DNA of 64,000 nt from Chthoniobacteraceae bacterium (GCA_037190965.1 JBBCKI010000010.1:1-64000), one strand, 5' to 3'. Shown: positions 3,667 through 21,590, counted from the stretch's first letter. The notes: generated from the sequence alone by a model not told the origin. Numbers and translations are program-made.

Positions 3667-3749
3667 GATCACCTTTCAAATTCAAGAAGAGATAGACTCG
3701 AACTGTATGCGGGTCCGTGATATGCATTTTCCTCGATCAGAACACTCAA

Positions 3750-5363: not shown

Positions 5364-5458
5364 TAGCGCGAATGCCGGATGAAATTGAAATATAGGTTCA
5401 AGGTACGTGCAGGAATGTTTCACAACATTATTTTTACAGATTTATAAGGGGCAAAGAA

Positions 5459-6241
5459 GTGCAAGCAGAACATCCATCAACCAAGTTGGAGTCATGGGGA
5501 GAACCCTTTGTTTGGAAGGGATTCGAAGGACGTGAGGGTTTGATTGAAGGAGTCCTGTGCAAGGTTATTCGACCGCACCAGAGCCTTGCCGCGCGCCCGT
5601 GGGCGTGGCGCCCCGAGTTCTTTGACGCTTTTGCGGAGGTCGATGAACAGCTTCTCCACAGAGGGCTTCATCTTGTTTATCATCATTTGCCTGACCAGTA
5701 TGGCTCTCCGGACGCGATCTCGTATGGGAATGCCTTACATTTCTTTGTTGCCCAGGTGTTCGAATTGGCCTTCAAGGTCTCATTCATTGCTTTGAGCCGC
5801 GCTGGACTTTTTGCGTTTAATTGGGCGGCGGAGAATCCAGAAAAGGTAGCCTGCATTTATGCAGACAACCCGGTTTGTGACTTCAAGAGTTGGCCGGCTG
5901 GATGGGGGAGGGGGAAGGGGTGCCCCACTGATTGGGAAAAATGCATGGGCTGCTACGGCCTGACTGAAGAGGGCGCTCGGGCCTATATCGGTAATCCTGT
6001 CGATCATGCAGAGGCGTTGGCGCGGGCTGGCATCCCCCTGTTTCTAGTGTTGGGGGATTGTGACAAAGTGGTTCCCGTGCCGGAGAATGCGGCAGAAATG
6101 AAGAGACGATTCGTTGCATCCGGGGGTACGTATCGGGAGATTATTAAAGAGGGTTGCGGTCACCACCCTCACGGCCTTCCCGATCCGACGCCGATTGTTG
6201 ACTTTATCGTGGGCTATTCATCTGCTCCGCAGAGAGCATGA
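5459..6241 (+). CDS. Alpha/beta hydrolase (esterase-like)
   Basis: WAWRPEFF, nucleophile elbow ALSRAG, CIYADNPVCDFKSWP, GDCDKVVP, GHHPHG. Confidence 0.75.
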   Translation: MQAEHPSTKLESWGEPFVWKGFEGREGLIEGVLCKVIRPHQSLAARPWAWRPEFFDAFAEVDEQLLHRGLHLVYHHLPDQYGSPDAISYGNALHFFVAQVFELAFKVSFIALSRAGLFAFNWAAENPEKVACIYADNPVCDFKSWPAGWGRGKGCPTDWEKCMGCYGLTEEGARAYIGNPVDHAEALARAGIPLFLVLGDCDKVVPVPENAAEMKRRFVASGGTYREIIKEGCGHHPHGLPDPTPIVDFIVGYSSAPQRA

Positions 6242-6296
6242 ATCTATCTTTCTAAATATTTCGTTTATTTGACAGACGATCCGCTGATCTTCGACC

Positions 6297-8282
6297 ATGC
6301 ACCCTCTCGCAACTCATCAACGCCAAGTTCACCTCGATTTCCACACTTCACCCTATATTCCAGACGTCGGGTCCGAATTTGACGCCACTGAGTTCGCAAA
6401 GACGCTCAAGGCAGCCTCTGTCAATAGCGTGACGATTTTCGCCAAATGCCACCACGGGATGTGCACCTTTCCGACAAAATCCGGAACCCAGCATCCTTCA
6501 CTAAAAGGACGTGATCTCCTTGGCGAACAGATCGAGGCGCTCCATAGGGAGGGGATCCGCTGCCCAGTCTATACCACGGTGGCATGGGAGGAGGATGTCG
6601 CACAGAAACATCCGGAATGGAGCCAAATTCGCCGCGATGGTAGCTTCGCTAAGCTCGAATCGGTCGGTGGCTGGAGGTTCAACAATTTCTTGCACCCCGA
6701 TTATCAGGGTTATATCGAGGCGCACTTGTGCGAGCTGTTAACCGGGTACGACATTGATGGATTATTTTTCGATATCCTTCTTTTCGATCCAAAGGCCTGT
6801 TGGAGTGATGCCAGCATAAAGTTTCGCGAGCGGAACCGATTGCTGAGCGAAGACCCGGGAACGCAATCAAGATTCGAAGCGCTTGCGCAGGAAGCGTTTT
6901 GCGATCGGTTCACCTCACTTATTTATAGCATCAACCCGAATGCCACGATCTTTTACAACTCCACCAATCCGATCTTTACTGACGCACGGAAAGGCGTGCG
7001 GACGCGCCATGTCCTGCACACGCACTGGGAATTGGAGTCGCTCCCGTCGGGTGCCTGGGGATATTACCATTTTCCGCGGCTTGCCCGTGCCTTTGGAACC
7101 TGGGGTAAACCGTGGCTTGGGATGACGGGGCGATTCCAAAAGTCGTGGGGTGATTTCGGAGGGCTCAAGCCGCAGGCGGCCCTTGAATATGAATGCTTTC
7201 GCTCCCAGGCACTGGGCGGCGCGAGTTCTGTCGGGGACCAGCTTCCGCCGCGCGGGCGACTCGATGTCGGGGCCTACGATCTGATCGGCGCAGTTTACTC
7301 ACAGTGGGCGGAAGCGGAGCCATTTTACTCCGGCTCCACCAGCCTGCCACAGATCGGCATCATTGCACCGGGTCACCCCGAATCCGACGGCGATGCGACC
7401 GACAAATCCCTCGAGGGCGCGGTACAGATGTGCGAGGAAGCGCATTACGATGCCATCGTTCTCGACGATGAAAGCCCGCTCGATGGCTGCGAACTAATCA
7501 TCCTTCCCGATTCTGTCGTCGTCACAGACCGGCTCGCATCGACGCTTTCCTCATGGATGGCGGCCGGAGGGCGGCTGATTCTGTCCCATCGAAGTGCCTT
7601 CCGCAAAGACGGAAACGCCGTCTTGGGCTGTCTTCCCTTATGCAATCGCGGGCCTGTGGAGATAGCTCCCTCCTACTGGCGTGCAAAATCCGGATTTCAT
7701 CCTGCACTCTCGCGTAGTGACCGGGTCATCTATCTCCCGGGCTTGAACGTCGAAGCGCCCGGCTGTGAAGTGCTCGCGCAACGCGCTCTGCCGTACTTCC
7801 AGCGTACGGCTCTGACCTTCTCTTCCCACTTCCAGGCTCCGCCCATGGCGGAAACGGAGCCGTTCTCCGCCATCGTGCAGGGAGAAAGGTTCATCTATTT
7901 CGCCGACCCCATCTTTCAGGAATACAGACAGTCGGGTAATATCGCCGTCCGCGATGCCTGGCGTGAGGCGATGCGGCGGCTCATTGGGCCTGCGCCGTTT
8001 GGTGAAGGGCTCGCCGGGACGATTTTGAGTGTGCCGAGGCGGCGGGGTGACGATCTCATTCTTTCCCTCTTGCACTATATTCCAACCCGCAAGGCGCTTG
8101 ACGTCGATATGATTGAAGAACGCTCCTCCTTCGCCGGGGAGCTGTTGCAACTGCCTGCTGCAGCGAAAACGGCGCGCATCTTCGGCTCCGCCAGCGAATT
8201 GCCAACGAACGAAGAGGGCGCATTCATCCTCCCGGCGGTGAAAGGAAGACTGCTGGTGGAAGTCCCGGGATTTTTCCGATGA
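6297..8282 (+). CDS. Glycosyl-hydrolase-like protein (GHL6-type) with a beta-galactosidase trimerisation-like domain
   Basis: RQVHLDFHT, FAKCHHG, DGLFFD, ELESLPSG.WGY, MTGRFQKSWGDFGG. Confidence 0.75.
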   Translation: MHPLATHQRQVHLDFHTSPYIPDVGSEFDATEFAKTLKAASVNSVTIFAKCHHGMCTFPTKSGTQHPSLKGRDLLGEQIEALHREGIRCPVYTTVAWEEDVAQKHPEWSQIRRDGSFAKLESVGGWRFNNFLHPDYQGYIEAHLCELLTGYDIDGLFFDILLFDPKACWSDASIKFRERNRLLSEDPGTQSRFEALAQEAFCDRFTSLIYSINPNATIFYNSTNPIFTDARKGVRTRHVLHTHWELESLPSGAWGYYHFPRLARAFGTWGKPWLGMTGRFQKSWGDFGGLKPQAALEYECFRSQALGGASSVGDQLPPRGRLDVGAYDLIGAVYSQWAEAEPFYSGSTSLPQIGIIAPGHPESDGDATDKSLEGAVQMCEEAHYDAIVLDDESPLDGCELIILPDSVVVTDRLASTLSSWMAAGGRLILSHRSAFRKDGNAVLGCLPLCNRGPVEIAPSYWRAKSGFHPALSRSDRVIYLPGLNVEAPGCEVLAQRALPYFQRTALTFSSHFQAPPMAETEPFSAIVQGERFIYFADPIFQEYRQSGNIAVRDAWREAMRRLIGPAPFGEGLAGTILSVPRRRGDDLILSLLHYIPTRKALDVDMIEERSSFAGELLQLPAAAKTARIFGSASELPTNEEGAFILPAVKGRLLVEVPGFFR

Positions 8283-8640
8283 GTGGTTGCTAGCGGCTGC
8301 AGGTCCCAATGCGCTCGTGCAGGAACGGAAGGCGGCGAAAGCGATTATCGCCAATGCGGTGACGAAGCAGAGATTTTTCGATGTCGCCAAGAAGGTCTTC
8401 TTTCGGGCCGATTTTTCGCAGCAACGCGAGTCTGGGATACCTCTTGCCACTCCAAGCTCCCCTGGGTTCTTTATTTCGGCTATCTTTTACTGGAATAAAC
8501 GGAGCCTGCTGATACCTTCTGCCGCCATGGGCGTCGCTTGGCGTTTCAGAGCGTTGCATCGCGTGAAAGCGGAACAGTTCGTAGCACACGGAGCAACGGA
8601 ATTCTGGAAACGAGTCATAAGTGCCTCATAATCAGAACAT

Positions 8641-8725
8641 GCCGACGTGGCGAAATGGCAGACGCAACGGACTTAAAATCCGTTTTCGCGAAAGCGGAGT
8701 GTGGGTTCGAGTCCCACCGTCGGCA
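8641..8725 (+). tRNA. tRNA-Leu (anticodon TAA), long variable arm, CCA not encoded
   Basis: Acceptor stem GCCGACG/CGTCGGC-A; anticodon arm ACGGA-CTTAAAA-TCCGT; T arm GTGGG-TTCGAGT-CCCAC; followed by CTC rather than CCA. Confidence 0.95.
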
Positions 8726-8810
8726 CTCTTCGGGCCATGCCTCGATGCAATTGGGACTTCTCGGGAGCTGTCAGGTTTTTAAAAATCGATAGCCGTGCGG
8801 AAATAGTTCA

Positions 8811-8837
8811 AAGGATTTGATGGGATCGGTGCGTCTT
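8811..8837 (+). promoter_or_regulatory. Candidate ECF (autoregulatory) promoter
   Basis: AAGGATTT-N12-GCGTCTT just upstream of the ECF start. CGTC is a common ECF -10 core. Confidence 0.35.
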
Positions 8838-8854
8838 ACTCATCAAAGAAAAGC

Positions 8855-9382
8855 ATGTCTCTCGAACAAGGTGGTGACACAGAACTGGTTAAGGAAGCCT
8901 TGGCGGGGGACGCCGATGCGTTTTCGGAACTTTTTGAAAGGCATTATTCCATGATCTACGCTTTTGCCTATCGCCTCTGCTTTGACAAGGGAGATGCCCA
9001 GGATGTTGCCCAGGAAACTTTTGTGAAAGCAGCCAGGTCGCTTGGCTCGTTTCATGGAAAATCCTCCTTCAAACAATGGTTGTATCGAATTGCGCTTAAT
9101 GCCAGCCACGACAGCAACCGGCGTTTGAACCGGAAAGAACGGCTTGCCGAGGTGCTCTCCGGAGCGCAAAGGAATTTCGAGAGGGGAGCGGATTACACCG
9201 GCCTTCAGTGCGCGTTGGAAAAATTGCCCGACGATCTTCGTGAAACGGTGACCCTGGTTTATTATGAGGGAATGAATCATGCCGAAGCGGCCCGCATCCT
9301 TGGGTGTGCCGAGACGACCGTTTCGTGGCGCATTCTCAGGGCCAAACGACGTTTGAAGTCTTTTTTGGAGGCGAAGCCATGA
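8855..9382 (+). CDS. ECF RNA polymerase sigma factor
   Basis: Sigma2 motifs (GDADAFSELFERH, AQDVAQETF, FKQWLYRIALN) and sigma4 motifs (LPDDLRETVTL, HAEAARILG...TVSWR). Confidence 0.93.
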   Translation: MSLEQGGDTELVKEALAGDADAFSELFERHYSMIYAFAYRLCFDKGDAQDVAQETFVKAARSLGSFHGKSSFKQWLYRIALNASHDSNRRLNRKERLAEVLSGAQRNFERGADYTGLQCALEKLPDDLRETVTLVYYEGMNHAEAARILGCAETTVSWRILRAKRRLKSFLEAKP

Positions 9383-9969
9383 AAGATCCGCGATTGGACG
9401 ATTTTTTGAAGAAACTTTCGGTTCCGGAGCCGGATCCGGCGGCTCGCTCCCGGGCGCTTTCCCGGGCGCGGGCGGCGTTTGAGAACCGGGAGGCGATCGC
9501 CTTGGTGGAAGAAGAGAGGGCTTGGGGCTGGCTTGGGCCGGTTGGCTTCGCGCTGGCGTTGCTGATCGCGGTCTTCTTCCTGCCATTTTCCTTGTCGACC
9601 GAGCCCTCGCCTTCCTTTGCCGACCGAGTCATGCTAGATGAGATGACCGCCCTCTTTCACCAACGACTGACGGCGGTAGTGGAGCGAGGCGGCGAGGTTG
9701 ATGTTCAAACTTCGCTACAAGATATGCCTTCATCCGAGCAACCGGTCAGGATCCTTTTCAGGCGTGGTCGTGAGGTCGTTCGGGTCTTGAGTTTCAGCGG
9801 TCGGGAGGTTTGCCTCGACCTCGATGGGAAGAGGGTCTGTTTTGACGTTCTTGCGACCAAGGATGACAACGTCATCCTGATGGGGGGCGATTTTCTTTGG
9901 GACCGGGATCATTCCGTATCTCTCGCGGGATATCGCATCGAAGCGGTAACACTCTTGCCGGCGTCATGA
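9379..9969 (+). CDS. Putative single-pass anti-sigma factor
   Basis: ATGA overlap with the sigma gene. Short cytoplasmic N-terminus (PEPDPAARSRAL), one TM helix, periplasmic C-domain. Confidence 0.65.
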   Translation: MKDPRLDDFLKKLSVPEPDPAARSRALSRARAAFENREAIALVEEERAWGWLGPVGFALALLIAVFFLPFSLSTEPSPSFADRVMLDEMTALFHQRLTAVVERGGEVDVQTSLQDMPSSEQPVRILFRRGREVVRVLSFSGREVCLDLDGKRVCFDVLATKDDNVILMGGDFLWDRDHSVSLAGYRIEAVTLLPAS

Positions 9970-10871
9970 AACTTCCGTTGAAAAGAGTTGATGTTTCGCT
10001 GCGGCCGGTACGGTTTCTTTTTGCCTTTGCGGGCTGCGGTGCTTTGGCGTTTGCGTCGACTGCGAATGAGCCTGTCGAAAGTCGGGTGTCTCTGGTTGCG
10101 ATGACCCCGGCGAAGCAGAACACCGACGAGGCCGGGTCGATAGAGCAAGTGCCGCAGGCGCTTCATGTTTTTGGGGGACGGACGGTGGGGATAAACTTCA
10201 GGCTGAAAGGGGAACCCGGTGTCGCTGGCGAGATGGAGGCTCAGTGCTTTGCGGTTGCCGACGGATTGAGAGCGCCCCTTGGGGCGTGGCAGGCACTGGG
10301 TTCCTTTCGCTTGAATGAGAAAGGCGAGGGGGAGTTGTTTGCTGAAGTCCCGGTTTCCAAGCCAGCTCGCCGGATAGGGATCGATGCTCAGCTTCGGGCT
10401 CGGGTTGAATCCGCGGTGGTTCCCGTCGGCTCCGGCCATTTCATGGTTTATCCCGACGATCTTGTTGCTCCCTTGAAAAGGGCGGGCATGACGCTGGGGG
10501 TTTTTGGGGGGAATGAGGCCCTTCGCTCCTTTTTCAAAGAAAAAGAGGTGCCCTTCAAAGAGATGGGTCGTGAGCTTCCGTCGCCATCTTCGGGCGAAAT
10601 GATCCTTATCGGCGATGAAACCGATGTGCGATTCAAGGAATGGCTTCGGCGGCTGCCAACCGATGCGCAAGTTCGGCTGATCGCTTTTGTTCCCGATCCA
10701 ACGGTGTTGCCCGGTGTTTATAGGCAGACGAGCGGCCGACTTGGCGTGACCAAGGTGACTCTTCCGATCTTGCAGAATCTTGCCGACGACCCGCTCCTTC
10801 AGACGTCGTTGGTTCGACTGATTATTGAATCTTACTCCAACAACTCATTGCCCATCTCATCCGACCCATGA
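9966..10871 (+). CDS. Secreted hypothetical protein
   Basis: ATGA-coupled at both ends; signal-like segment FLFAFAGCGALAFA. Confidence 0.6.
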   Translation: MKLPLKRVDVSLRPVRFLFAFAGCGALAFASTANEPVESRVSLVAMTPAKQNTDEAGSIEQVPQALHVFGGRTVGINFRLKGEPGVAGEMEAQCFAVADGLRAPLGAWQALGSFRLNEKGEGELFAEVPVSKPARRIGIDAQLRARVESAVVPVGSGHFMVYPDDLVAPLKRAGMTLGVFGGNEALRSFFKEKEVPFKEMGRELPSPSSGEMILIGDETDVRFKEWLRRLPTDAQVRLIAFVPDPTVLPGVYRQTSGRLGVTKVTLPILQNLADDPLLQTSLVRLIIESYSNNSLPISSDP

Positions 10872-11800
10872 AACCGATTGTCCTGTCCCTACTGCTTTTG
10901 CTGGCCGCCGGCTTTTCGGCTTCTGCGGAGGAGGCCGCACCCGCGGCTCCGCTCACCGTTGCGGTGCTTGATTTCCAAGCTGTCGGAGAAGGGCTAACCG
11001 GGCGCGGAGCGGAGGTGGCTGTTCTTTTGAACGCTCATCTCTCGGCCGCTCCTGAAGTGCTTTTGGTGGAACGTTCGGAAATGGAAAAAATTCTCGGTGA
11101 ACAGGAGCTAGGCCTTTCAGGATTGGTCTCCCAGGATACCTCGGCTAAGCTCGGCGCGCTTATCGGGGCGAAGGTATTGGTGACAGGCCGGTTTTTTCAA
11201 ACGGGTGAAAAATATATGCTCGTGGCGAAAGTAATGAGCACCGAGACCGGGCGCGTCTATGGGGAGACCGCTAGTCTCAGCCATCCCGGTGCGCTTGATA
11301 AGGCGACCGAGGAACTTGCCTCCAAGGTCGCCGGAGTCCTGGAGAAACGAGGGGATACTCTCATTGCCAAAGTCGAGGCGCCGGAAAAGCAGATCGATCG
11401 CTTGAGGAAATCGCTTGAGGGCAAGGTACTTCCCAGTGTCGGGGTTTCGGTCACCGAAGAGCATCTGCGCCGTCCTATCATTGACCCCGCAGTGGAAACA
11501 GAATTGATGCGGTCGCTCCAGAAGCTCGGTTTCAAGGTGATCGATCCCAAAACGTCGAATGAGCGCCCGGATATCCAGATCTCGGGAGAGGCATTCAGCG
11601 AACTTGGCGGGCGGAAAGGCAATCTTGTTTTCTGCCGCGCTCGGGTGGAGTTGAAGGTGACCGCCAATGGCGATTTGCTGTTGGCCGATCGTCAGACCGA
11701 TGTCGGGGTGGATCTGGCAGAGAATGTCGCCGGAAAGAACGCGCTGGAGAACGCCGCCAGACGTCTTCTCGACCGGGTTGTTCCAAAGCTGGTAAAATAG
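10868..11800 (+). CDS. CsgG/HfaB-like protein, secreted
   Basis: Sec signal (ASA). TVAVLDF...LVERSEMEKILGEQEL...AKLGALIGAKVLVTG is a CsgG/TolB_N-like signature. Confidence 0.75.
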   Translation: MKPIVLSLLLLLAAGFSASAEEAAPAAPLTVAVLDFQAVGEGLTGRGAEVAVLLNAHLSAAPEVLLVERSEMEKILGEQELGLSGLVSQDTSAKLGALIGAKVLVTGRFFQTGEKYMLVAKVMSTETGRVYGETASLSHPGALDKATEELASKVAGVLEKRGDTLIAKVEAPEKQIDRLRKSLEGKVLPSVGVSVTEEHLRRPIIDPAVETELMRSLQKLGFKVIDPKTSNERPDIQISGEAFSELGGRKGNLVFCRARVELKVTANGDLLLADRQTDVGVDLAENVAGKNALENAARRLLDRVVPKLVK

Positions 11801-11828
11801 CACGGCATTCACCTGCACAGTCCTCCGA

Positions 11829-14800
11829 ATGACCTGGATCACTTCGTCATCATTGTACGGAAGAAGAGTTTGGCATCTCCTTGGGCTTTGTTTGTTGCTC
11901 ATAGCAAGCCTCGCTCGTGGCGAGGGCGTCCGTCTTGCCATCATAGGCGGGCCCGAACTGGAGAAGGAGAGCCTCTTGCTTTCGGTCTCCTTGTCCGCAA
12001 ATGCAAACCTGGAGATTGTGGAGCGCTCGGAGATCGCAAAGGTGTTTGCAGAGCAAAGCCTGGAGCGGCAAGGGTTTACCGCCCGCGACGGGATTCGGCT
12101 CGGTGCCTTGCTCAAGGCCGATGGGCTGGTGTTGATGGAACGCTCGCAGGAGGAGATTCGGTTGCGGATTGTGGCCGTGAATTCCGGCGCCATCGTGGCA
12201 TTCTTGACGGCACCGATCGCCTCCGGTCGGGAGGAACAATGGAGTTCCAATCAAGCGATGGAGATTGCCCGGGTTGCGCCGAAGCTCAGTCTACCGAGAT
12301 CCGAACTCATCCCGATCTCCCTAATGCAGATCAATTCGGCTGTGGGTGGAACGCGCGGAACGGTACTGGAGGAGAATGTCTATAGCCTGCTTTCAGCGCG
12401 GTTCTCGGCAGATCCGAGAATCGTCGTCTTGGAGCGTGCGCGGCTTCAGGACGCCGTCGCAGAAAAGGAGTTCGGTGCGGAGCAGGGCGCTTTTTGGAAT
12501 AGCGCATGGGTGATTGATGGCACGGTAACGGAGCTTCCCTCGGGGCTCTCTTTGGATCTGCGGCTGCAACCTCCCGGAGGCGACCAGGCTAGCCGCATTC
12601 AGGCTGAAGGTTCGAATCTCGCAGGGCTGGTGGAAGAGGCGAGCGGGAAGGTTCTTCAAACGTTCGGCGGCCTCAGTAAAATCTGGAATCCCGCGAAGGA
12701 AGCGGAGCGTTTCGGAGATGAGGCGATCTGGGCCGCAAGCAATGGTCTGTTGATACAGGCGACACGCGCGATCGAAGCAGCGATCGCACTGGGTGAGTCT
12801 TCCCCGGAGGCTTTGCGTTGGCGCTGGCAATGTTACGAACGCCTGGCAAAGGCGCATTCCGGGCAGGGGAAAAACAGGAAGAGCAGTTCTCAGGATGCGG
12901 AGAAGCCGGGCGCCGTACAGATCGGGCAGATGACGCGATGCCTGGAGCTCTATCAGGAAGCATTGTTGGCAAATGCTTTACCGAAGGATGAGGAGCTTGA
13001 AAACGGAAGGGTTCAACGTCACGGAACCGAGGGAAAGCTCTCCATGAAGCGCTTTGGAAAATTTCCAGGGCCCAATTACGTCGATACCTCCAGGAAATTT
13101 CCGGGTTGGGAAGGATGCTCGCTGCTTCGTACGGCGACGCGGTTGATCCTCGATGTGGAAGGAACGAAGGGCGCTGTCAACGCTGCCGATGAACAGGCAT
13201 TGGTTGCTCTTCGTCGTCAGATCCAGGGGCTTTTTGACGCGATGGTTGCCACGCTGCCGGGCATGACGCTGACTCCCTGTCCGGATGATCGGGTGCCGGC
13301 CTGGAACTCGCGCATCGATCCCGAGACAAGCGGGCCACGGAATGAATCTTTTCCCGGTAATATTCACACCACCCGCCTTGTCTACGGCCGGGTGTGGGTT
13401 AGGGAGCGGGAGCCGCATTTTGCCTATGTCAGGCAGTGCCTGTTGAGCGACCTTCCCGGCGATCCCGACTTCTTTCAGAGGGCGCTCCAGCTTCTCACCC
13501 GTGATGGCTGGCTTGGCGATGAACGGTTACCCAGGAGTTTTGCACTCGAGAAGCGGAAGTGGGGGGAGTCGTTGATCGCAGCAAATAGCCTGCGGTCTCA
13601 GGTGGCGGGATCCTATATTCTTTGCTGGAGCGGAGCCCCCACTCAAGGGTTGAGAATTTTGGAACAGCATAAGGCTCAGTTTCTCAATAACAACATTTCG
13701 GTGGATTACATTATGGGAGCTTTTCGCTTTCATTCTTCGTTGGAAAGCTTGCATATCGATAATCCCGGTGAGTCCCTCAGTCGGGCCGCAGGGGTGCTCA
13801 GGGATCTGGTGGTCTATTTGTTGGATCATGACGCGGCGTTATCTTCAGATGTGATGGGAAGGCTGGGCTGGATATTATTTACCGAGCGGCAGGCCACGGA
13901 ACTGTTGACCGCTTTCAAGGCCTATCAATCGCGTCATCCCTTGTCGGACAAAGATCCTCGGGAGTGGGCTGTGAATTCGCTGCTTACATCCCTGACTCGC
14001 AAATCGGGGGCCGTCGCATTGGATGCGGGACCGGCCTCGCCTCCAGCGGTTTCGGCTTCCCGTAAAACTCCGCGACTCCCGCAGGTTGGGCAGGGGGCCA
14101 AGTCAGGTGACTTGAAACCGCTCCTGATCGAGAAGGCGTGGATGGCACGAAATTATAATGACGCCAATGAACCCGGGGCCATTTGCTACGCTCTCCCAGC
14201 GGGCGATAAAATCTGGCTTCAAGTTGAGTTTCAAAGGAGAGATAAATCGATCCGGCGGCAGTTTTTGACGCTCGATCTGCCCTCTCTCAAGAGCAAGGTT
14301 CTTCATCGTGAGGTGATTCCGGCTGCATTTGCCATGGGCGACAGGGTTGGCCCTACTTTCGCCAGTGATGGAGAAGGAGTCAATTTTTGGAACGGGCGCG
14401 GTATCAGTTACGCCCGGGCAAAGGAGGTTCGCGCCCTGGAAGTTCCCGATCTCAAGAGACCATTTCTATGGCTGGTGGATGGGTTTCTTTATACGGCGGA
14501 TGAAGACGGGGTTCTTCTCAAGATCAATCCGGAAACCAGCCATTATGAGATCCTTGCCAGCAGCCGCAGGCGGCCGCCGCAGAATGCTCTCGATTCGGAA
14601 AAGAATCTTCCGGGCGTCACACGGATTTATCGTGGAGCAAACGGAGGCCTTGCGGTAAAGATCGAGAACAGGGACGTTTACATCTACAGCGAGGCAGAGC
14701 GGAATTGGACGGCTCGTTCGCAGACGCAACTTGATGTCCCGGATCTCCTTGCGGCAATTGACTCCGGGTGGGAAGAGGCGGGGAGGAATTTCACCGGCAT

Positions 14801-15224
14801 CCACATAAACGAATTGCTCAAGAAGCGCGCACCCGAAGACCGCGAGCAAGGACTTCGCAGCCTGCGTCCTGCTCTCCGCTATTTGCCTGTCGAAAGTCGG
14901 GACCATCCAAACGACCTAAGGTTGATGATGACGGTTAAGGCCATCACGGGCGTGGTTTCGAAAACGGAGCTAAAGGCTCTTCTGGGGGATCATCGGCGTT
15001 TTTGGCTTCTTGATCTTAATCTTTCTTCGGACGCCTTTGTTTGTCGCGAGGTGAACTTCAGCCCCGCCTATCAGGCCGCGGCCGACCGATCCTCCGGGCC
15101 GTATAGGCTTATTCCTACTGCCTCAGGCGTCGTTCTCTATGCGCCCAATGCCCCCGTGCTCTGGTTCGTTCCGGTGGGGGATATCTCTCCAGCTTTCTCT
15201 GATGGTGCACCTTCGATCCAATGA
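11829..15224 (+). CDS. Large secreted protein with N-terminal CsgG-like domain(s)
   Basis: 1131 aa with a signal peptide. LEIVERSEIAKVFAEQ...LGALLKADGLV and a second IVVLERARLQDAVAEKE repeat; helical middle; beta-rich C-terminus. Confidence 0.65.
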   Translation: MTWITSSSLYGRRVWHLLGLCLLLIASLARGEGVRLAIIGGPELEKESLLLSVSLSANANLEIVERSEIAKVFAEQSLERQGFTARDGIRLGALLKADGLVLMERSQEEIRLRIVAVNSGAIVAFLTAPIASGREEQWSSNQAMEIARVAPKLSLPRSELIPISLMQINSAVGGTRGTVLEENVYSLLSARFSADPRIVVLERARLQDAVAEKEFGAEQGAFWNSAWVIDGTVTELPSGLSLDLRLQPPGGDQASRIQAEGSNLAGLVEEASGKVLQTFGGLSKIWNPAKEAERFGDEAIWAASNGLLIQATRAIEAAIALGESSPEALRWRWQCYERLAKAHSGQGKNRKSSSQDAEKPGAVQIGQMTRCLELYQEALLANALPKDEELENGRVQRHGTEGKLSMKRFGKFPGPNYVDTSRKFPGWEGCSLLRTATRLILDVEGTKGAVNAADEQALVALRRQIQGLFDAMVATLPGMTLTPCPDDRVPAWNSRIDPETSGPRNESFPGNIHTTRLVYGRVWVREREPHFAYVRQCLLSDLPGDPDFFQRALQLLTRDGWLGDERLPRSFALEKRKWGESLIAANSLRSQVAGSYILCWSGAPTQGLRILEQHKAQFLNNNISVDYIMGAFRFHSSLESLHIDNPGESLSRAAGVLRDLVVYLLDHDAALSSDVMGRLGWILFTERQATELLTAFKAYQSRHPLSDKDPREWAVNSLLTSLTRKSGAVALDAGPASPPAVSASRKTPRLPQVGQGAKSGDLKPLLIEKAWMARNYNDANEPGAICYALPAGDKIWLQVEFQRRDKSIRRQFLTLDLPSLKSKVLHREVIPAAFAMGDRVGPTFASDGEGVNFWNGRGISYARAKEVRALEVPDLKRPFLWLVDGFLYTADEDGVLLKINPETSHYEILASSRRRPPQNALDSEKNLPGVTRIYRGANGGLAVKIENRDVYIYSEAERNWTARSQTQLDVPDLLAAIDSGWEEAGRNFTGIHINELLKKRAPEDREQGLRSLRPALRYLPVESRDHPNDLRLMMTVKAITGVVSKTELKALLGDHRRFWLLDLNLSSDAFVCREVNFSPAYQAAADRSSGPYRLIPTASGVVLYAPNAPVLWFVPVGDISPAFSDGAPSIQ

Positions 15225-18148
15225 ACCTTTTTTTCAGAACCCTCCTTGTTTCCTCCCTATCGATAGGGCTATTTCTGCATCCGGTATCGGCAGATAACCT
15301 GCACGAGATGGTCGAGGCCGTGGAAATGGCCCGATCGAGAAATACCGATAAGCAAACGGTTATTTCGCTTTGCGACAAGATTCTCGAAAGAGATGTCATC
15401 GCCGATTTTTTGACGCACGGGACTTCCCCTGCCTATCAGGCGACAGGAGAGCTTAGCGTGATTGATGAGCTGGGAACCCGGGTGGAAGCATGGAAAGAGG
15501 AGTTGGAGGAGAACCCGAAGTCCGAAAGACTTAACTATCTTCTGGCCATTGCGTCCCGTCACTATCGAGCCAGGCCGAAGCAGACCGGGCGGCTCAATCT
15601 TTACCCTCCAGTGCGCATCAGTATTACCCGCGAAGGAGCGAAGGTTTCCGGTGTGGCAGTCGACAAGGGACGGGATTTTGAGGAGTCCGCCATGCTTGCG
15701 CTGCCTCAGAAGGCGCTGATCGGCCTGGCTGGTAACTACACCACCGGGAAATTCAAGGAAGTGAAGCTTACTGTCAATGGCGCTCCTATCACCAACCCGC
15801 AATGGCAGCCGGTCCAGATCGGCGGAGATTCCACGCGGGGGAAAGTGGAAACTTCGGGTGACGGTCTTCTGCTTACGGGGGTCGGAGCGTTGCCTTCCAC
15901 GGATGTGGCCGATAGTAATTTCTTTGCGTTTTACGAAATGGATGGGGATGGGACTCTGGAGGTGGTTGTCGATGAACTCGGAGACGAGAATGCATATGGC
16001 GCGGTCGGAATCATGATCCGGGGCTCTCTCGATCCTTCCGCCCCCTCCGCTTCAATGATGGTAAAACGCAAGGAGAATGCCGTCAGCTTTTCAGCCAGAA
16101 CGGAACAGAATGAATTGCCTGGATATCTCACCGCGCTTTGCGCTTCGAGACCGTATGATCCCGCTTTTGTGGTGGCATGCCTGCGCGAGATGATTTCGGA
16201 CTGGACTAATATGACCGGAACGGCTTACCAGGCCGCCGAGCGTCTGCTCGAAAAGGAACCAGCCGCTCTATTGAGAGATATCGAGCTTTTCACGGAGGTC
16301 TATTCAAGGAGCTACCATCTTGATCGTCTTTCAAGACATCTCGCTTCCATTCCTGCGCCGACGGACGCGGAGTCGGTTTCCCAATTTGCTTCGGCCTGCA
16401 ATCGATTGGCAGAATCGATGCAAGGGCGAGGCGACCATGAGGAAGCAATCCTGCTCTGGGAGAAGGCTGAGAAGCTGATGCCCGGGTTCACCTCGATTGA
16501 GGATCGTCAGAAGCGAATTATCTCCTATAGAAAGCTGGAGCGTTCCGCCGAGGTTGCCGCCCAATTGAAAAATCTCTTCCTCGGCGGATTGCCTAATGGC
16601 GCACCCATGCGGGATTGGGAGAGACGCTTTGCTGCGGAGGAGATTCTTGGGTTTGTATCTCTCAGCGATCCTGCTCTCGTGCCTGTCTTTGCGCTCTCAT
16701 TTCATTATGCGGCTCACTATGGCGTCGCCCGTGAAATTGCCGACACGCTCGATAAAGTGCAAGGGAGGCCCCAACAGAAGGCCGCTGCGAAGGCGGTGGC
16801 GCTTGCAATGAGAATCGCAGCCCGGGACCCGGTCGTGATTGCCACAGCCAAAAAAGGGGGTGCCGCTTATGCGGCGCAATTGCCCAAAGATCTCCCCGCT
16901 GAGGGACTGGCGATGATTGCCTTTGAACTCCAGCAGTCCAGCGAAGGCCGTTTAGCCGCTTTGTCCGTGATTGATCGTTTGTTGAATATGAAGAGGGATT
17001 CTTTCTCTCGATACTCAAAGGAGGATCTTCTTCTATGGCAACTGCGGCTGGCTGATCTTCACGGAGATCCGAAGATTCAGGGTAAGGCGCTTGCGGCTCT
17101 CATCGCTCATGAGTTCAGCCCGGAAGGGGGTAGCGGGCATGAGGGTGTTTTTTCCGAAGCATTGATGCGTCTTCTCCGGTCGGGCGATCTGGCGGTAGCC
17201 ACGAAGCTGGCAGCGCATCATGAGCAGAAGAACCCGCGCCCCGAGCCTTCCTCGAACGGTCAGCTCTCCCACGCCTTCGGCATGCTTGACCTTTTTCAGG
17301 GGAAGGCGATCCCGATGCCGATCATTTGGACGGCTCCCGCAGGCGACGAGGTCGAAGTTCGGTGGGAGTTTACCCGCGACATTGCCCGGCCCATGTACTA
17401 CCCGGATGCCAGGGCGCTTGGTGCTTCAATTCCGGCACTCGACCGTCGATATACCCTCGATATCCATGCCATCGGGGCAAAGCATCCCGGTGGGGAGATT
17501 CCGGATGATTCCAGGATAGCCTCTCTCCCGGGGGTTGCCAGCACCGGCCAATGGAAGGGAGCGGTTTCCCCGAGGAACCGCTGGCTCATTGCCACGTTTA
17601 CGGACGAGGACGGGAAGGTGCATCGTTCGCCTTCCATTCCGGCGGCCCTGGGGAAGAACCTCATTTCGCCGATCAAGATCGATGAACTCTTGGGTGAGAC
17701 AGGGGCGTGGAGCGCGGATTCCAAATGGTTCTGGGGAGCCCCGTTAAAGGAAGCGTTCCCTGGTAACGGTCTCTTCCTGTCGCGCCTCCAGCCCGGTGTG
17801 GGGCAATTGGCGTTCAAACACAAACGTGTGCCGATCGATCCGGCAGCGGACTATGTCCTCACCGCCTGGATGAAAACCGATAATGGGCAAGGGCCAGCCG
17901 GGGTCAGATACTACGCTGACGCTTCGGTATCAGTTGTCTTTTTCGATGCGAATGGAAAAGAAGTGACCGGATCCCGTGAAGTCGTCTCACTCGCGGGATG
18001 CTGGACTCTGCTCACCGGCCAGTTTGGAGGAAGCAAAGGATGGGGCATTCTCCCGCTCCCACCAGGAGTGACGAGTGCAGAGGTTCGTTTGAGCCTCCGG
18101 ACGCAATGTGAAATCGGGGAAATCGGTTTTTATGAAGTGCCCAAATAG
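15221..18148 (+). CDS. Large secreted helical-repeat protein with ConA-like and CBM-like domains
   Basis: 975 aa, ATGA-coupled, signal peptide. GDGTLEVVV...GIMIRGSLDP.AP motif; C-terminal YVLTAWMKT...VFFDANGKEV galactose-binding-like sandwich. Confidence 0.6.
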   Translation: MNLFFRTLLVSSLSIGLFLHPVSADNLHEMVEAVEMARSRNTDKQTVISLCDKILERDVIADFLTHGTSPAYQATGELSVIDELGTRVEAWKEELEENPKSERLNYLLAIASRHYRARPKQTGRLNLYPPVRISITREGAKVSGVAVDKGRDFEESAMLALPQKALIGLAGNYTTGKFKEVKLTVNGAPITNPQWQPVQIGGDSTRGKVETSGDGLLLTGVGALPSTDVADSNFFAFYEMDGDGTLEVVVDELGDENAYGAVGIMIRGSLDPSAPSASMMVKRKENAVSFSARTEQNELPGYLTALCASRPYDPAFVVACLREMISDWTNMTGTAYQAAERLLEKEPAALLRDIELFTEVYSRSYHLDRLSRHLASIPAPTDAESVSQFASACNRLAESMQGRGDHEEAILLWEKAEKLMPGFTSIEDRQKRIISYRKLERSAEVAAQLKNLFLGGLPNGAPMRDWERRFAAEEILGFVSLSDPALVPVFALSFHYAAHYGVAREIADTLDKVQGRPQQKAAAKAVALAMRIAARDPVVIATAKKGGAAYAAQLPKDLPAEGLAMIAFELQQSSEGRLAALSVIDRLLNMKRDSFSRYSKEDLLLWQLRLADLHGDPKIQGKALAALIAHEFSPEGGSGHEGVFSEALMRLLRSGDLAVATKLAAHHEQKNPRPEPSSNGQLSHAFGMLDLFQGKAIPMPIIWTAPAGDEVEVRWEFTRDIARPMYYPDARALGASIPALDRRYTLDIHAIGAKHPGGEIPDDSRIASLPGVASTGQWKGAVSPRNRWLIATFTDEDGKVHRSPSIPAALGKNLISPIKIDELLGETGAWSADSKWFWGAPLKEAFPGNGLFLSRLQPGVGQLAFKHKRVPIDPAADYVLTAWMKTDNGQGPAGVRYYADASVSVVFFDANGKEVTGSREVVSLAGCWTLLTGQFGGSKGWGILPLPPGVTSAEVRLSLRTQCEIGEIGFYEVPK

Positions 18149-18164
18149 CCAAGTCTAAAGCGCT

Positions 18165-18626
18165 CTAAGGCCGATAATTCGTATATCGCGCCCGTTGCTC
18201 CGGCGTGAGGTTTGCAGGGTCGAATCGCCGGTCAGGGACGTTGTTGATTCGCGAATGGATAACGTTGGCCATATCTTCAGCGGCCCTTTTGATATGGCCT
18301 GCCCGGTCTCCAGTGAATAGTTCGTCCACCGTTTCGTTGAAGAGAGCCAGCCACCGCTCAAAGCGGGGCCAGTCCATTTCGGTCTTGCGGACGAGGTCGA
18401 AGTGAGCACGCAGGGGGTTGCCCTGAAAACCGCCGTTCCCGAAAAGCACTGTCTGCCAGAAGGCGTAGAGCTTGGGAAGGTGCACATTCCAGTCGACCTT
18501 CGCGACATCGGTGAAGATCGGCCCGATAAGATCGTCCGCGCGGACTTTCTCGTAGAAGCGGTCGACCAAAATTTCGATCTCGGGCCTGCCGTTGATGTCG
18601 GGCCGTGTGTCTTCTTCGTGGTTCAT
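18165..18626 (-). CDS. Group III truncated haemoglobin
   Basis: LVDRFYEKVRADDLIGPIF, HLPKLYAFW, FERWLALFNETVDELF.G. Start set at MNHEED. Confidence 0.9.
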   Translation of the reverse strand: MNHEEDTRPDINGRPEIEILVDRFYEKVRADDLIGPIFTDVAKVDWNVHLPKLYAFWQTVLFGNGGFQGNPLRAHFDLVRKTEMDWPRFERWLALFNETVDELFTGDRAGHIKRAAEDMANVIHSRINNVPDRRFDPANLTPEQRARYTNYRP

Positions 18627-18636
18627 AGATTGATGA

Positions 18637-19848
18637 TTATGACACTTTTTCCAACTCCTGCCGGGGGCCAAAGAATTCGAAATGAACCTGCGAAGCGGGG
18701 ATACCCCACTTCAGGAGATGATGATAGATGCCGACCATGAAAGGCTTGGGTCCGCAGAAATAGTAATCCGCATCCCGCCCGGGCAGCAAGCCCTCCAGCA
18801 GTTCCGCATCGATGAATCCCTCGCTGTGGTGCTGTGCCTGGATGCGGTCCTGCTCGGTGGCTTCGCTATAGCGATAATGCACCTTCAGGTTGGGGTGCTT
18901 GCTCTCCAGGTCGCTCACGAGATTCCGAAAGGCGTGAACCTGCCCATTGAGAGCCCCATGCACGAAATAGACCGGCCTGCCGGGCTGCGTGGCCAGGGCG
19001 GTGGTGAGAATGCTTAGCATGGGGGTGATCCCCACGCCTGCCGAAATGAGCATGAGCGGCCGCTCGTGCTTTTCGGAGGGGTCGAGGAAGAACTCTCCGC
19101 ACGGAGGCCCGAGTTCGATTTCATCCCCTTCCTGGATCTCTTCGTGAAGGTAGGCGGAGGCAAACCCTTGCGGTTCGCGCTTGACGCTGATGCGGAGACG
19201 ATCTTCGCCCGGAGCATTGGAGATGCTATAGTTGCGCATCGTGGTCCCGCTTGCGGGATGCGGAAGCCGTACCGTGATGTATTGGCCTGGTTTGAAGGCG
19301 GGAACACCTCTGCCTGAAGCGGGCTCCAGGTGAAAGGAGGTAATCACTTCGCTCTCCTTGACCTTGCAGGCCACGCGGAAAGGCTTGAAACCGCTCCAGC
19401 CTTTCTTCGCGTCGGTTTGATCCGAGTAGATCTGCTTTTCCCTCCCGATCAGAATATCGGCCAGAAAACCATAGGCTTCCGCCCACGCCTCGATGACTTC
19501 CTCGGTCGCTCCCTCGCCAAGCACCTCGCGGATGGAGGCGAGCAGGTTCGCGCCGACGATGGGGTAGTGTTCGGGAAGAATGCGGAGAGAGGCATGTTTC
19601 TGGGCGATCAACTCGACGGCTCCTCCCAGGACCTCCAGATTGTCGATATTGGCGGCATAAGCGCAGATGGCGGCTGCCAGCGCCTTCTGCTGAGAGCCTC
19701 CCGCCTGATGGGCCGGATTGAACAGGGGAGCCACCTCGGGGTTGTGGCTGAACATTCGCTTGTAAAAGTGACGGGTCAGCGTTTCTCCGTGCTGCTCCAG
19801 AATGGGTGCGGTGGCCTTGACGATTTCGATGGTACGAGGGTTCAACAT
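18637..19848 (-). CDS. hmp: Flavohaemoglobin (NO dioxygenase)
   Basis: Start MLNPRTIEIVKATAP gives 403 aa. Globin (IAQKHASL, HYPIVG), FAD (PGQYI, RNYSIS) and NAD (SAGVGITP, FCGP, EFFGP) motifs. Confidence 0.93.
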   Translation of the reverse strand: MLNPRTIEIVKATAPILEQHGETLTRHFYKRMFSHNPEVAPLFNPAHQAGGSQQKALAAAICAYAANIDNLEVLGGAVELIAQKHASLRILPEHYPIVGANLLASIREVLGEGATEEVIEAWAEAYGFLADILIGREKQIYSDQTDAKKGWSGFKPFRVACKVKESEVITSFHLEPASGRGVPAFKPGQYITVRLPHPASGTTMRNYSISNAPGEDRLRISVKREPQGFASAYLHEEIQEGDEIELGPPCGEFFLDPSEKHERPLMLISAGVGITPMLSILTTALATQPGRPVYFVHGALNGQVHAFRNLVSDLESKHPNLKVHYRYSEATEQDRIQAQHHSEGFIDAELLEGLLPGRDADYYFCGPKPFMVGIYHHLLKWGIPASQVHFEFFGPRQELEKVS

Positions 19849-19902
19849 AACTATGAGCATCCTTCCGGCTGCCCCGTTCGGTGGCGAGAAGAGGAAAATC
19901 TG

Positions 19903-19922
19903 TTTGTGACATAAGTCACAAA
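19903..19922. promoter_or_regulatory. Crp/Fnr-family (HcpR-like) operator
   Basis: Palindrome TTTGTGAC-ATAA-GTCACAAA (TGTGA-N6-TCACA) between the divergent hmp and Crp/Fnr genes. Confidence 0.75.
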
Positions 19923-19941
19923 TCGGCAAAATTAGCGGGAT

Positions 19942-20730
19942 ATGCCCCGACGAATCACTGCGGAATCCGAGCGTCTTGCCACGGCGCGCCAGGCCGCGTT
20001 GCATTACTCGATTTCGCGCGCTCCGATCTTCGCGGGGCTGCCGGAGGAGGATCTGCAACGCCTTTCGGGGTATTGCGTGGTCCGCGCCCTGCCTCGCGGG
20101 ACCTATCTCTTTCGTCAGAACGATCCCGTGGCGGGGTTCTTCGTGGTGCGGTTGGGGTTGATCAATGTGCATCGGCTCAATGCCGACGGGCGCGAGCAGA
20201 TCATTCATCTTCTGCGGGAGGGGGAGTCCTTTGCGGAGCGGGCCGTGATCTCCGAATCCGGCTACCCTGCGAACGCCCGGGCGGTTCAGGACAGCGAGGT
20301 CATCCTGATTCCGATCGCCGAGTTCAAGCGCCACCAGAGGGATCGGCCTGACCTCGCCTGGCGAATGCTGGCTTCGATGAGCCATCATCTTCGGACGCTG
20401 GTGGCGACGCTGGAAGGGTTGCGGTTTACTGACATCGAGACCCGCCTGATTCATTGGCTCCTGCAGCGTTGCGCTTCCCCCGATTCTCCAGCCGCCGTCG
20501 AGATCGGCCTTGGCATGAGCAAGACCGATCTTGCCGCAGAACTGGCGACGCGCCGGGAAACGCTTTCGCGAACCTTCGGCAAACTCAAAAGCCAGAAGTA
20601 CATCACACCCAAGACAAGCTCGATCGTGGTGAACAACCCGCGCGCCCTGCAGCAGTTGTTCAACGAAAGGCTCGCTTCCTCAAAGATGACGCGCGCCGAG
20701 GGAGCCCGATGGCTTTCCAACGCCGGATAG
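19942..20730 (+). CDS. Crp/Fnr family transcriptional regulator
   Basis: Effector domain (LFRQND...GESFAE...YPANA) and HTH (SKTDLAAELATRRETLSR). No N-terminal FNR Cys cluster. Confidence 0.9.
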   Translation: MPRRITAESERLATARQAALHYSISRAPIFAGLPEEDLQRLSGYCVVRALPRGTYLFRQNDPVAGFFVVRLGLINVHRLNADGREQIIHLLREGESFAERAVISESGYPANARAVQDSEVILIPIAEFKRHQRDRPDLAWRMLASMSHHLRTLVATLEGLRFTDIETRLIHWLLQRCASPDSPAAVEIGLGMSKTDLAAELATRRETLSRTFGKLKSQKYITPKTSSIVVNNPRALQQLFNERLASSKMTRAEGARWLSNAG

Positions 20731-20773
20731 TATTACTGCATATATTAGATCAGCGAGGGGCGGAACTTTTCTT

Positions 20774-20989
20774 CAGCCCGGAGGGCTGGCAGAAATTAGC
20801 CGGGCGGTGAAGCGAAGCGGCCCCCCTGGAATACCGATCAACATCAGTTCCGCCCCGAAGGGGCGGTGGAAATGTGGTCGGAACAGACCCCGGTTCCACC
20901 ACCCCTCCGGGGTGGATATGATTTTCTTCAAGGTTCCGGTGGTTCCGCTACGCTCCACCACCGGCTAATTTCCATCAACCCTCGGGTTG
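20774..20989. repeat. Palindromic intergenic element (REP/MITE-like)
   Basis: Outer arms CAGCCCGGAGGGCTGGCAGAAATTAGCCGG / CCGGCTAATTTCCATCAACCCTCGGGTTG, plus internal hairpins CCGCCCCGAAGGGGCGG and CCACCCCTCCGGGGTGG. Confidence 0.7.
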
Positions 20990-21125
20990 GAAATCCCACC
21001 TTGTTCTGAACCGAAAAACAGAAACGACAATTTTCAAAGGCTTTTGCCGAAGGATTTAACGTAGTAATACTAAAGCATTTTCGGCCCCCGACAACGAGGA
21101 AGATCGATGGAGGGATGCATTTTTA

Positions 21126-21165
21126 AATATGCGAGTTGACGAATATTAGGATTGGCGAATATAAG
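21126..21165 (+). promoter_or_regulatory. Sigma70 promoter overlapped by probable ArsR operator
   Basis: TTGACG (21136)-N18-TATAAG (21160); imperfect palindrome AATATGCG-N6-CGAATATT and a second CGAATAT half-site. Confidence 0.55.
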
Positions 21166-21171
21166 CCCTCC

Positions 21172-21540
21172 ATGGAACTCGTTGAGATCTACCAATGCTT
21201 CTGCGACGCGACGCGGCTCCGCATCATCCACCTGCTGACGCAGGGGCCGCTCTGCGTCTGCCATTTCCAGAGCATTCTCGATCTTCCCCAAGCGAAGGTC
21301 TCCCAACATCTTGCCTATCTCCGGAAACACCAAATGGTGGAGACCGCCCGGAAGGGGACCTGGATCATTTACAGCCTTCCGGCCCGCCCATCCGCGGACC
21401 TCGAGGCCAACCTCCGGTGTCTTCAGGATTGCGTCGTGTCGGATCGGCGCTTTCGGGAGGACCTCAAACGTCTGGCGAAGATCACAAAAGGCGCGGAGTG
21501 GACTCACGAAGCGCTGATTAAGAAGATCGGCTGTTGTTGA
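21172..21540 (+). CDS. arsR: ArsR/SmtB family repressor
   Basis: D.TRLRII.LL, LCVCH, VSQHLAYLR, C-terminal GCC; upstream of acr3 and arsC. Confidence 0.88.
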   Translation: MELVEIYQCFCDATRLRIIHLLTQGPLCVCHFQSILDLPQAKVSQHLAYLRKHQMVETARKGTWIIYSLPARPSADLEANLRCLQDCVVSDRRFREDLKRLAKITKGAEWTHEALIKKIGCC

Positions 21541-21590
21541 GAACAACTCCGCCTCATCCGCATTTGCACAAGGATTTACTATTATTGCCA

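Follow-up and report, generated by a model that had tools for sequence, protein, structure and literature searches.

An ECF sigma-headed gene set with CsgG-like domains in a Chthoniobacteraceae genome: a conserved module and a possible periplasmic assembly

We analysed a set of six genes, headed by a gene for an extracytoplasmic function (ECF) sigma factor, in a 64,000-nucleotide (nt) stretch of DNA from a Chthoniobacteraceae bacterium (GCA_037190965.1, JBBCKI010000010.1:1-64000; hereafter the window). The window belongs to contig C10 of a 4.2-Mb genome (G000) that is 97% complete. The six open reading frames (ORFs) are co-oriented on the plus strand at 8855-18148, and four gene junctions are ATGA overlaps, at 9379, 9966, 10868, and 15221; the remaining junction, between genes 4 and 5, is a 28-nt gap. 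Gene order, lengths, and overlaps are exactly those of the original prediction, which had been made from the sequence of the window alone. The features are collected in Table 1. The comparisons below show that the set is a conserved module of five components with one local add-on gene; its regulon likely reaches unlinked members of the gene 5 family, here called giants.

Table 1. Features of the operon and its immediate 5' flank, in window coordinates (aa, amino acids)
Feature	Position	Strand	Basis or remark
tRNA-Leu(TAA)	8641..8726	+	directly 5' of the operon; ARAGORN and Rfam; context only, possible insertion site
Predicted ECF-type promoter	8810..8839	+	5' of gene 1
Gene 1, ECF sigma factor, 175 aa	8855..9382	+	Pfam Sigma70_r2, r4_2, TIGR02937
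Gene 2, putative anti-sigma, 196 aa from ATG at 9379	9379..9969	+	hydropathy, position
Gene 3, exported, Ig-like and flavodoxin/receiver-like, 301 aa	9966..10871	+	AlphaFold2
Gene 4, exported, two TolB_N/CsgG/LpoB/PelC/FlgT-type domains, 310 aa	10868..11800	+	Pfam CsgG, AlphaFold2
Gene 5, giant, 1131 aa	11829..15224	+	HHalign, profile matches
Gene 6, exported accessory, 975 aa, without CsgG-like module	15221..18148	+	local addition

The predicted ECF identity of gene 1 was supported by matches to Pfam Sigma70_r2 (2.5e-17) and r4_2 (2.8e-14) and by a TIGR02937 score over the cut-off; the protein holds only regions 2 and 4. Gene 2 had been predicted to encode an anti-sigma factor with one transmembrane segment. 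A single hydrophobic segment was found by hydropathy at residues 48-75, which gives one membrane helix between a cytoplasmic N-terminus and a periplasmic domain of no named family, whereas the anti-sigma label is putative because it derives from position and topology, with no family match. Pfam and PDB provided no assignment for gene 2, and the 31 family members scanned gave only a weak PycTM match in two. The counterparts of gene 2 across the loci compared below constitute one family, and the anti-sigma gene adjoins the ECF gene in 27 of the 27 loci that carry the ECF. To judge by sequence, genes 1 and 2 are a regulatory module of a known kind, with those hallmarks of an autoregulated ECF/anti-sigma operon that sequence can reveal. 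At two loci, single ORFs match both the ECF and the anti-sigma families (L017:13313-13975 and L053:3882-4700), which may reflect fusion by deletion or frameshift, or an assembly error. A variant layout, with the ECF and anti-sigma genes divergent from genes 3 and 4, occurs at L134:3602-7089.

Each of genes 3-6 begins with an N-terminal hydrophobic segment by hydropathy, in agreement with the signal-like N-termini claimed for the four downstream products. The AlphaFold2 model of gene 3 (mean predicted local distance difference test, pLDDT, 79.7) contains an immunoglobulin (Ig)-like beta-sandwich at residues 63-164 and a flavodoxin/receiver-like alpha/beta domain at 172-296. The fold search with this model returned only common Ig and receiver-like folds (Z 8-9, best 9.0) and no family assignment.

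Gene 4 is the best-conserved gene of the set, with 1520 homologues among the 8000 candidates scored, and from its sequence it is the putative hub. It is 61% identical to a Chthoniobacteraceae-labelled homologue and 41-47% identical to named Planctomycetota records, which points to Verrucomicrobiota as the phylum of the genome; one homologue is labelled 'CsgG/HfaB family protein' in its source. The CsgG-like character assigned to this protein was recovered at several levels. Residues 45-110 match Pfam CsgG (PF03783; 1.9e-8, 34.3 bits against a cut-off of 20.8, over 65 of 210 positions), and the profile of gene 4 matches the solved CsgG (E 0.003), the first domain being homologous to CsgG residues 62-132. 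The AlphaFold2 model (pLDDT 88.3) has two domains, residues 27-168 and 177-310. The closest folds were TolB for the first domain (Z 13.4; root-mean-square deviation 2.9 over 123 residues), an LPHT-ring chain (Z 13.0), and CsgG for the second domain (Z 11.5), and Foldseek agrees with the TolB_N/CsgG/LpoB/PelC/FlgT-type assignment. The top fold matches include the TolB N-domain, LpoB, and LptE, and ring-forming chains among the matches are CsgG, PelC, the LPHT-ring, and TraT. By profile, the second domain shows no similarity to the first domain or to the giant repeats (HHalign probability below 10).

The absence of a lipobox from the 310-aa protein, also noted beforehand, was confirmed: gene 4 has a cleavable signal and no Cys in its first 45 residues. 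A loose lipobox pattern occurs in 5 of 120 gene 4 homologues, each time, by eye, inside a cleavable signal. In the predicted monomer, only a two-residue turn separates strands 103-112 and 115-124, while the second domain has a short hairpin (236-266) with conserved charges. The R and E of an ER-x-E helix motif are invariant in 142 gene 4 sequences and in both repeats of 119 giants. Several departures from the usual gene 4 were seen. It is split over two frames at L018:11068-12149 and L003:10001-10906, by possible decay or assembly error, and in the former locus a divergent CsgG-domain gene lies upstream of the split gene. Two paralogues stand in tandem at L050:7092-8996. In a 546-aa Lacihabitans protein (L004:9008-10648), a full-length CsgG domain is followed by a C-terminal part like the second domain of gene 4, and the other genes are not alongside. 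A secretin-domain gene 3' of gene 4 (L069:7394-9775) is non-recurrent.

In the giant encoded by gene 5, a signal peptide precedes two CsgG-like repeats (about 33-280); next come TPR-like helices (about 285-335; TPR profile match in PDB), a variable region that is likely helical, and a Kelch-like propeller within about 745-1125. The two repeats, which the original prediction had placed at the start of this protein, are homologous to the first domain of gene 4 (HHalign probability 98.3 and 95.6). For the C-terminal region, the family profile matches Kelch propellers in PDB (E 5e-6, profile positions 706-878 of 1045). The relatives of gene 5 fall into 1068 clusters at 50% identity. Among the best 150 relatives (median 1157 aa), almost every one covers the N-terminal module, at most 111 cover the propeller core, and at most 8 cover residues 400-750. 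A survey of 117 large or neighbouring proteins found ankyrin, Sel1, EF-hand, FGE-sulfatase-like, PA14/Fn3, CBM48, Ig, and PQQ-type repeats as add-on domains. Genomes carry 0-5 giants, many of them unlinked to the operon. In three loci (L074-L076), shorter module proteins of 530-830 aa occur with extra unnamed exported genes.

Gene 6 showed no significant family match: Pfam TPR_2 was below the cut-off, PDB gave nothing under E 0.06, and the Atlas leads were DUF1581/DUF1583 clusters at no more than 0.84 (all under 0.9). The lectin domain predicted for this 975-aa protein therefore found no significant match in Pfam, PDB, or Atlas; residues ~200-295 give the impression of a possible concanavalin-like lectin motif. 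Of 200 other genomes in the order, 3 have homologues of gene 6 and nine have gene 4, with no genome in both groups; one close homologue of gene 6 lies on a 2.5-kb contig. A relative without operon neighbours is TPR-rich, and gene 6 is a distant relative of 2300-aa TPR proteins. The 2366-aa TPR protein at L133:3595-10695 includes a stretch to which most of gene 6 is homologous (E 1e-29), and gene 6 may represent a free-standing part of such large TPR proteins. Because gene 6 relatives are rare and absent from the other gene 4 genomes of the order, the conserved unit is genes 1-5 with a variable number of giants, and not all six genes.

Sequence comparison shows the set to be conserved among many relatives of Verrucomicrobia from soil, water, and the gut. 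Gene 4 is present in 53 of 401 genomes of the phylum, 10 of 201 genomes of the order, none of five congeners (three re-tested with a profile), and, in the phylum to which a Planctomycetota record belongs, 7 of 301 genomes. Of the 401 phylum genomes, 49 carry the giant module; 47 have both, six gene 4 only, two the giant only, and 346 neither. The strength of this co-occurrence is overstated, because the giant profile was built from gene 4 loci, only five candidates per genome were scored, and related genomes are not independent. We then compared 48 loci, with at most 20 kb of DNA surrounding gene 4 in each; long contigs guided the choice of 39 among the 52 other positive genomes, and eight other loci were included. 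The profiles were made from those same loci, several of which stop at a contig edge. Of the 48 loci, 44 have gene 3 next to gene 4, 34 have a giant, 29 the anti-sigma gene, and 27 an upstream ECF gene. In 11 held-out loci that entered no profile, gene 3 and a giant were each found in all 11 (one giant cut by a contig end, one on the opposite strand), and the ECF and anti-sigma genes in eight. Synteny had been set beforehand as a check, and the order is conserved across both groups of loci. No other neighbour recurs beside the loci beyond close kin. The prediction of an ECF-headed exported set based on CsgG/TolB_N-like domains and free of curli genes thus holds as a conserved arrangement, except that its sixth gene is outside the conserved unit.

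The predicted operon promoter consists of a -35 element AAAGGAT (8810-8816), a 15-nt spacer, and a -10 element CGTCTTAC (8832-8839), and ends 15 nt 5' of the ECF start codon. Upstream of operon ECF genes, the motif reads A(A/G)GA(T/A), 14-15 nt, (C)GTCT(T/A)A. This pattern matches 22 of 28 operon-ECF upstream regions (200 shuffles, mean 1.1, maximum 5; reverse strand, 3), a count that is partly circular, as the pattern was drawn from the same regions. We therefore scanned both strands of this genome with a matrix built from 21 other genomes and without this one. The operon site ranked third genome-wide (18.0 bits), and the first rank went to a site at C23:84413, 18 nt 5' of an orphan giant ORF. 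Upstream of four further ECF genes of the genome, scores reach at most 3.2 bits and a site of this type is absent. The orphan giant (C23:84461-87751; with its promoter site, C23:84413-87751, equal to L117:2414-5752) is 1096 aa long, has the gene 5 architecture, and is the only paralogous giant in the genome. Because the matrix ranks their sites first and third, the operon and the orphan giant are likely one regulon. The operon is also likely autoregulated by its own sigma factor, and that gene 1 reads promoters of the 8810-8839 type is inferred from the conservation and position of the motif. With the exact pattern, five genomes yielded 10 matches against one in the control: five before an operon ECF gene, three before orphan giants, and two before other genes. 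Pattern matches also precede a 604-aa exported protein (L094/L110:1807-3621), a 195-aa membrane-like protein (L099), and an 875-aa ORF (L101/L115:1393-4020); these gave no Pfam match where scanned, and may be extra regulon members or chance.

Regarding the surroundings, the tRNA was the sole Rfam match in 6000-24000, and a scan for sigma-70 promoters and terminators gave counts at about the shuffle level. No duplicated tRNA 3' end was found on the contig. The DNA of the congeners matches the tRNA only, which leaves the tRNA as no more than a possible insertion site. The G+C content at third codon positions (GC3) is below the 25th percentile of the genome in five of the six operon genes. Just 3' of the operon, a convergent globin gene (Pfam Bac_globin) starts at 18165 and is followed, within 18165-23292, by genes that resemble, on inspection by eye, a flavohaemoglobin, a Crp/Fnr-type regulator, and arsR-acr3-arsC; loci L077 and L075 likewise have Acr3- and ArsC-like genes close to the operon. 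On the other side of the tRNA, 3717-8282 of the window holds glycoside-hydrolase-like genes (GHL6, 2.5e-31; GHL10, weak) and an alpha/beta hydrolase. Of two DNA runs compared with the stretch, the contigs of one, possibly the source run, span it in overlapping pieces with 0 differences inside the operon and are uninformative on transcription.

We tentatively read the set as a self-contained ECF regulon whose exported products form a periplasmic hub-and-cargo assembly, with the giants as interchangeable recognition subunits, a reading that we hold with slightly more doubt than conviction. From one promoter type, the sigma factor would transcribe both the operon that encodes it and giant genes located elsewhere, and the one-helix protein, as in the standard ECF/anti-sigma arrangement, would hold it at the membrane until a periplasmic cue. 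Genes 3-5, which carry cleavable signals and no lipid anchor or barrel, would be exported to the periplasm. There, the first domain of gene 4 and both giant repeats may co-oligomerise, as suggested by their common ER-x-E motif and by ring-forming fold relatives. The hub would comprise the constant 310-aa and 301-aa proteins, on which giants dock through the common CsgG-like domains. The case for docking on gene 4 combines co-occurrence, co-regulation of unlinked giants, the invariance of ER-x-E in three homologous domains, and the ring-forming relatives. When the complex of gene 4 (27-310) and the giant N-terminal module (33-340) was predicted, three runs gave 0.11, 0.45, and 0.02 against a mark of 0.32, with no controls folded, an outcome that counts neither for nor against docking. 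The TPR/helical region, propeller, and ankyrin, Sel1, EF-hand, FGE-like, PA14, CBM48, and Ig domains would be binding modules; therefore, the giants may recognise a range of ligands, in the envelope or outside it, and the hub may signal back to the anti-sigma factor. It is rather doubtful, in our estimate, that the set is a new kind of periplasmic machine, in which gene 4 forms a CsgG-fold hetero-oligomeric ring that recruits polymorphic giant solenoid-propeller receptors, whether from operon genes or from scattered orphans behind the same sigma promoter, and signals ligand capture through the anti-sigma factor, as a swappable recognition repertoire of the Planctomycetes-Verrucomicrobia-Chlamydiae (PVC) group. 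The original prediction had called the complex stoichiometric, which is a poor fit with 0-5 giants per genome, many unlinked, and had allowed an outer-membrane location, to which the lack of a lipid anchor and barrel is opposed.

Several results weigh against the hub-and-cargo reading. The shared fold does not force a ring, because TolB, the closest fold match, is not known to oligomerise (available part of PMC3173608). Six of the 53 gene 4 genomes have no full giant module at E 1e-15, and two of five re-tested had no further match. A family ECF gene is missing upstream in the fetched DNA of 21 of the 48 loci, some truncated and some not, and the operon ECFs are not resolved as a single clade (two changes on the tree; one change in 0 of 200 bootstrap trees). 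With a looser promoter pattern, five other genomes gave 10 matches against 10 in the control. An upstream site above 12 bits was present in only five of eight held-out ECF genes, and a site of at least 16 bits in only 5 of 31 unlinked giants tested. The latter rate is well over the controls (0 antisense, 0 intragenic, 0.4% shuffle); with so few strong sites, most orphan giants are therefore not visibly in the regulon.

Other readings were weighed against the same evidence. Gene 4 and the giants could be TolB-, BamB/BamD-, or LpoB-like chaperones or activators, an envelope quality-control or biogenesis aid induced by envelope stress and with no complex of its own. The fold matches of gene 4 to the TolB N-domain, LpoB, and LptE speak for this, as do the TolB-like ends of the giants (a TolB_N-type domain and a propeller, with TPR helices between) and the CGTCT(T/A)A -10 box, which resembles those listed for ECF21, ECF105, ECF111, and ECF116 in the available part of PMC7826278. 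We nevertheless consider it unlikely, since the patchiness of the set (53 of 401 genomes; 0 of 5 congeners) and the divergence of the giants (1068 clusters) are atypical of partners of a conserved machine, and genes of the tol, bam, lpt, or peptidoglycan type are not recurrent neighbours of the loci. The same patchiness and loss in congeners, together with the tRNA-adjacent position, the low GC3 in five of six genes, and the fast-diverging multi-copy TPR/ankyrin/Sel1/propeller proteins, would suit polymorphic defence or non-self recognition. In that case, the giants would be variable receptors in the periplasm that detect phage proteins, injected effectors, or predators, and the ECF/anti-sigma pair would boost them in a DdvS/DdvA-like manner; a membrane anti-sigma/ECF pair over a defence island is documented (PMC11506125, seen in part). 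However, PADLOC 2023 gave 0 defence families for genes 2-6 and the orphan giant, its one weak match (E 0.0046) being on the sigma helix-turn-helix; no catalytic effector domain recurs among the 117 large or neighbouring proteins scanned; and a DUF4011 helicase lies 3' of the operon in one locus only (L071:7398-13217). A defence role is quite improbable in our judgement.

Marginally less probable still is polysaccharide sensing or capture, in which the giants would be glycan-binding proteins and the ECF glycan-responsive. Some giants do bear PA14/Fn3, CBM48, or FGE-like domains, and glycoside-hydrolase-like genes lie upstream in the window and close to several loci. Most giants, both of this genome included, are nevertheless without a carbohydrate module, TonB-dependent transporters and FecR domains are absent, and no hydrolase family is a repeated neighbour of the core. 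The reading to which we give very little credence is that gene 4 is a curli- or holdfast-type outer-membrane secretion pore and the giants its secreted surface cargo. True homology of the first domain to CsgG 62-132, the structural match of the second domain to CsgG, and the name of one homologue favour a pore. A curli or holdfast pore is unlikely because gene 4 is without a lipobox and without long membrane hairpins, its model showing a two-residue first-hairpin turn and a short charged hairpin in domain 2. Folded proteins of 1000-1800 aa are also implausible cargo for a channel of CsgG size. Curlin (PF07012) and CsgF (PF10614) were not found in the 97%-complete genome, with the Escherichia coli control found and CsgE not searched for, which agrees with the predicted absence of curlin repeats.

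The hub-and-cargo assembly, if real, would put the CsgG fold to a new use. The envelopes of Verrucomicrobiota and Planctomycetota are unusual and poorly understood, and these phyla encode many giant proteins to which no role has been assigned. Here, more than 1000 divergent proteins of 1000-1800 aa are tied to one small core and one promoter, and the giant family is thereby testable by overexpression of a single sigma factor or by a two-gene deletion. In these phyla, an annotation as 'CsgG/HfaB family' is in many cases unlikely to denote curli or holdfast.

Among known systems, curli CsgG and HfaB (PF03783) share with gene 4 a homologous alpha/beta domain with the ER-x-E helix and a structural match. 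Gene 4 departs from CsgG by its two tandem domains and by the absence of a lipobox and, in the model, of long membrane hairpins; here, the domain is reused at the N-terminus of giants, and csgA, csgB, and csgF were not found. By lipobox, modelled hairpins, and partner genes, the set is unlikely to belong to the curli system. In a comparison with the Caulobacter holdfast anchor HfaABD, defined by an HfaB-like lipoprotein with hfaA and hfaD neighbours, a lipobox is absent here, and no small conserved neighbour besides genes 1-3 recurs (HfaA and HfaD models were not searched). TolB is the best structural match to the first domain of gene 4, and giants likewise have a TolB_N-type start and a propeller end; they differ by two such domains, about 400 residues between, hypervariability, and multiple copies, and no tolQRA or pal genes adjoin the loci. 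The scaffolds PelC, FlgT/LPHT ring, TraT, PqiC, and DUF330 have the fold family in common with gene 4 (Z 7.5-13.0), which is the basis of the proposed oligomer. Several of these scaffolds are lipoproteins associated with a named transporter or motor, whereas a partner of that type is not encoded in this operon.

Large PVC proteins with a helical-repeat region and a beta-propeller are also known as the membrane-coat-like proteins (PMC2799638, in part), a class that requires the propeller N-terminal to the helical domain. The giants were ruled out as members by their C-terminal propeller, in addition to the signal peptide and the CsgG-like repeats. In Myxococcus xanthus, DdvS/DdvA likewise places an ECF and a membrane anti-sigma factor over a dedicated gene set, with periplasmic TPR involvement; DdvA has its own TPR-CHAT and zinc site and controls CBASS/CRISPR genes, none of which was seen in this set (PMC11506125, in part). 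The ECF classification of Casas-Pastor et al. (PMC7826278) describes the same arrangement of an ECF gene, a one-helix partner at +1, and a bipartite promoter with a CGTCT-type -10 box. In the available parts of its supplement, the -35 A(A/G)GA(T/A) and the gene context are not included, and 'CsgG' and 'PF03783' have 0 occurrences. A search for CsgG, ECF, and Verrucomicrobia returned 0 papers, and CsgG-related results were only curli or unrelated. The original prediction had suggested that the system may be undescribed, and no counterpart or description of the exported set was found in the literature searched, where subscription journals are thinly covered and the PMC7826278 supplement is represented in part. 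The exported half is thus apparently undescribed, and the regulatory half that heads it is of a known kind.

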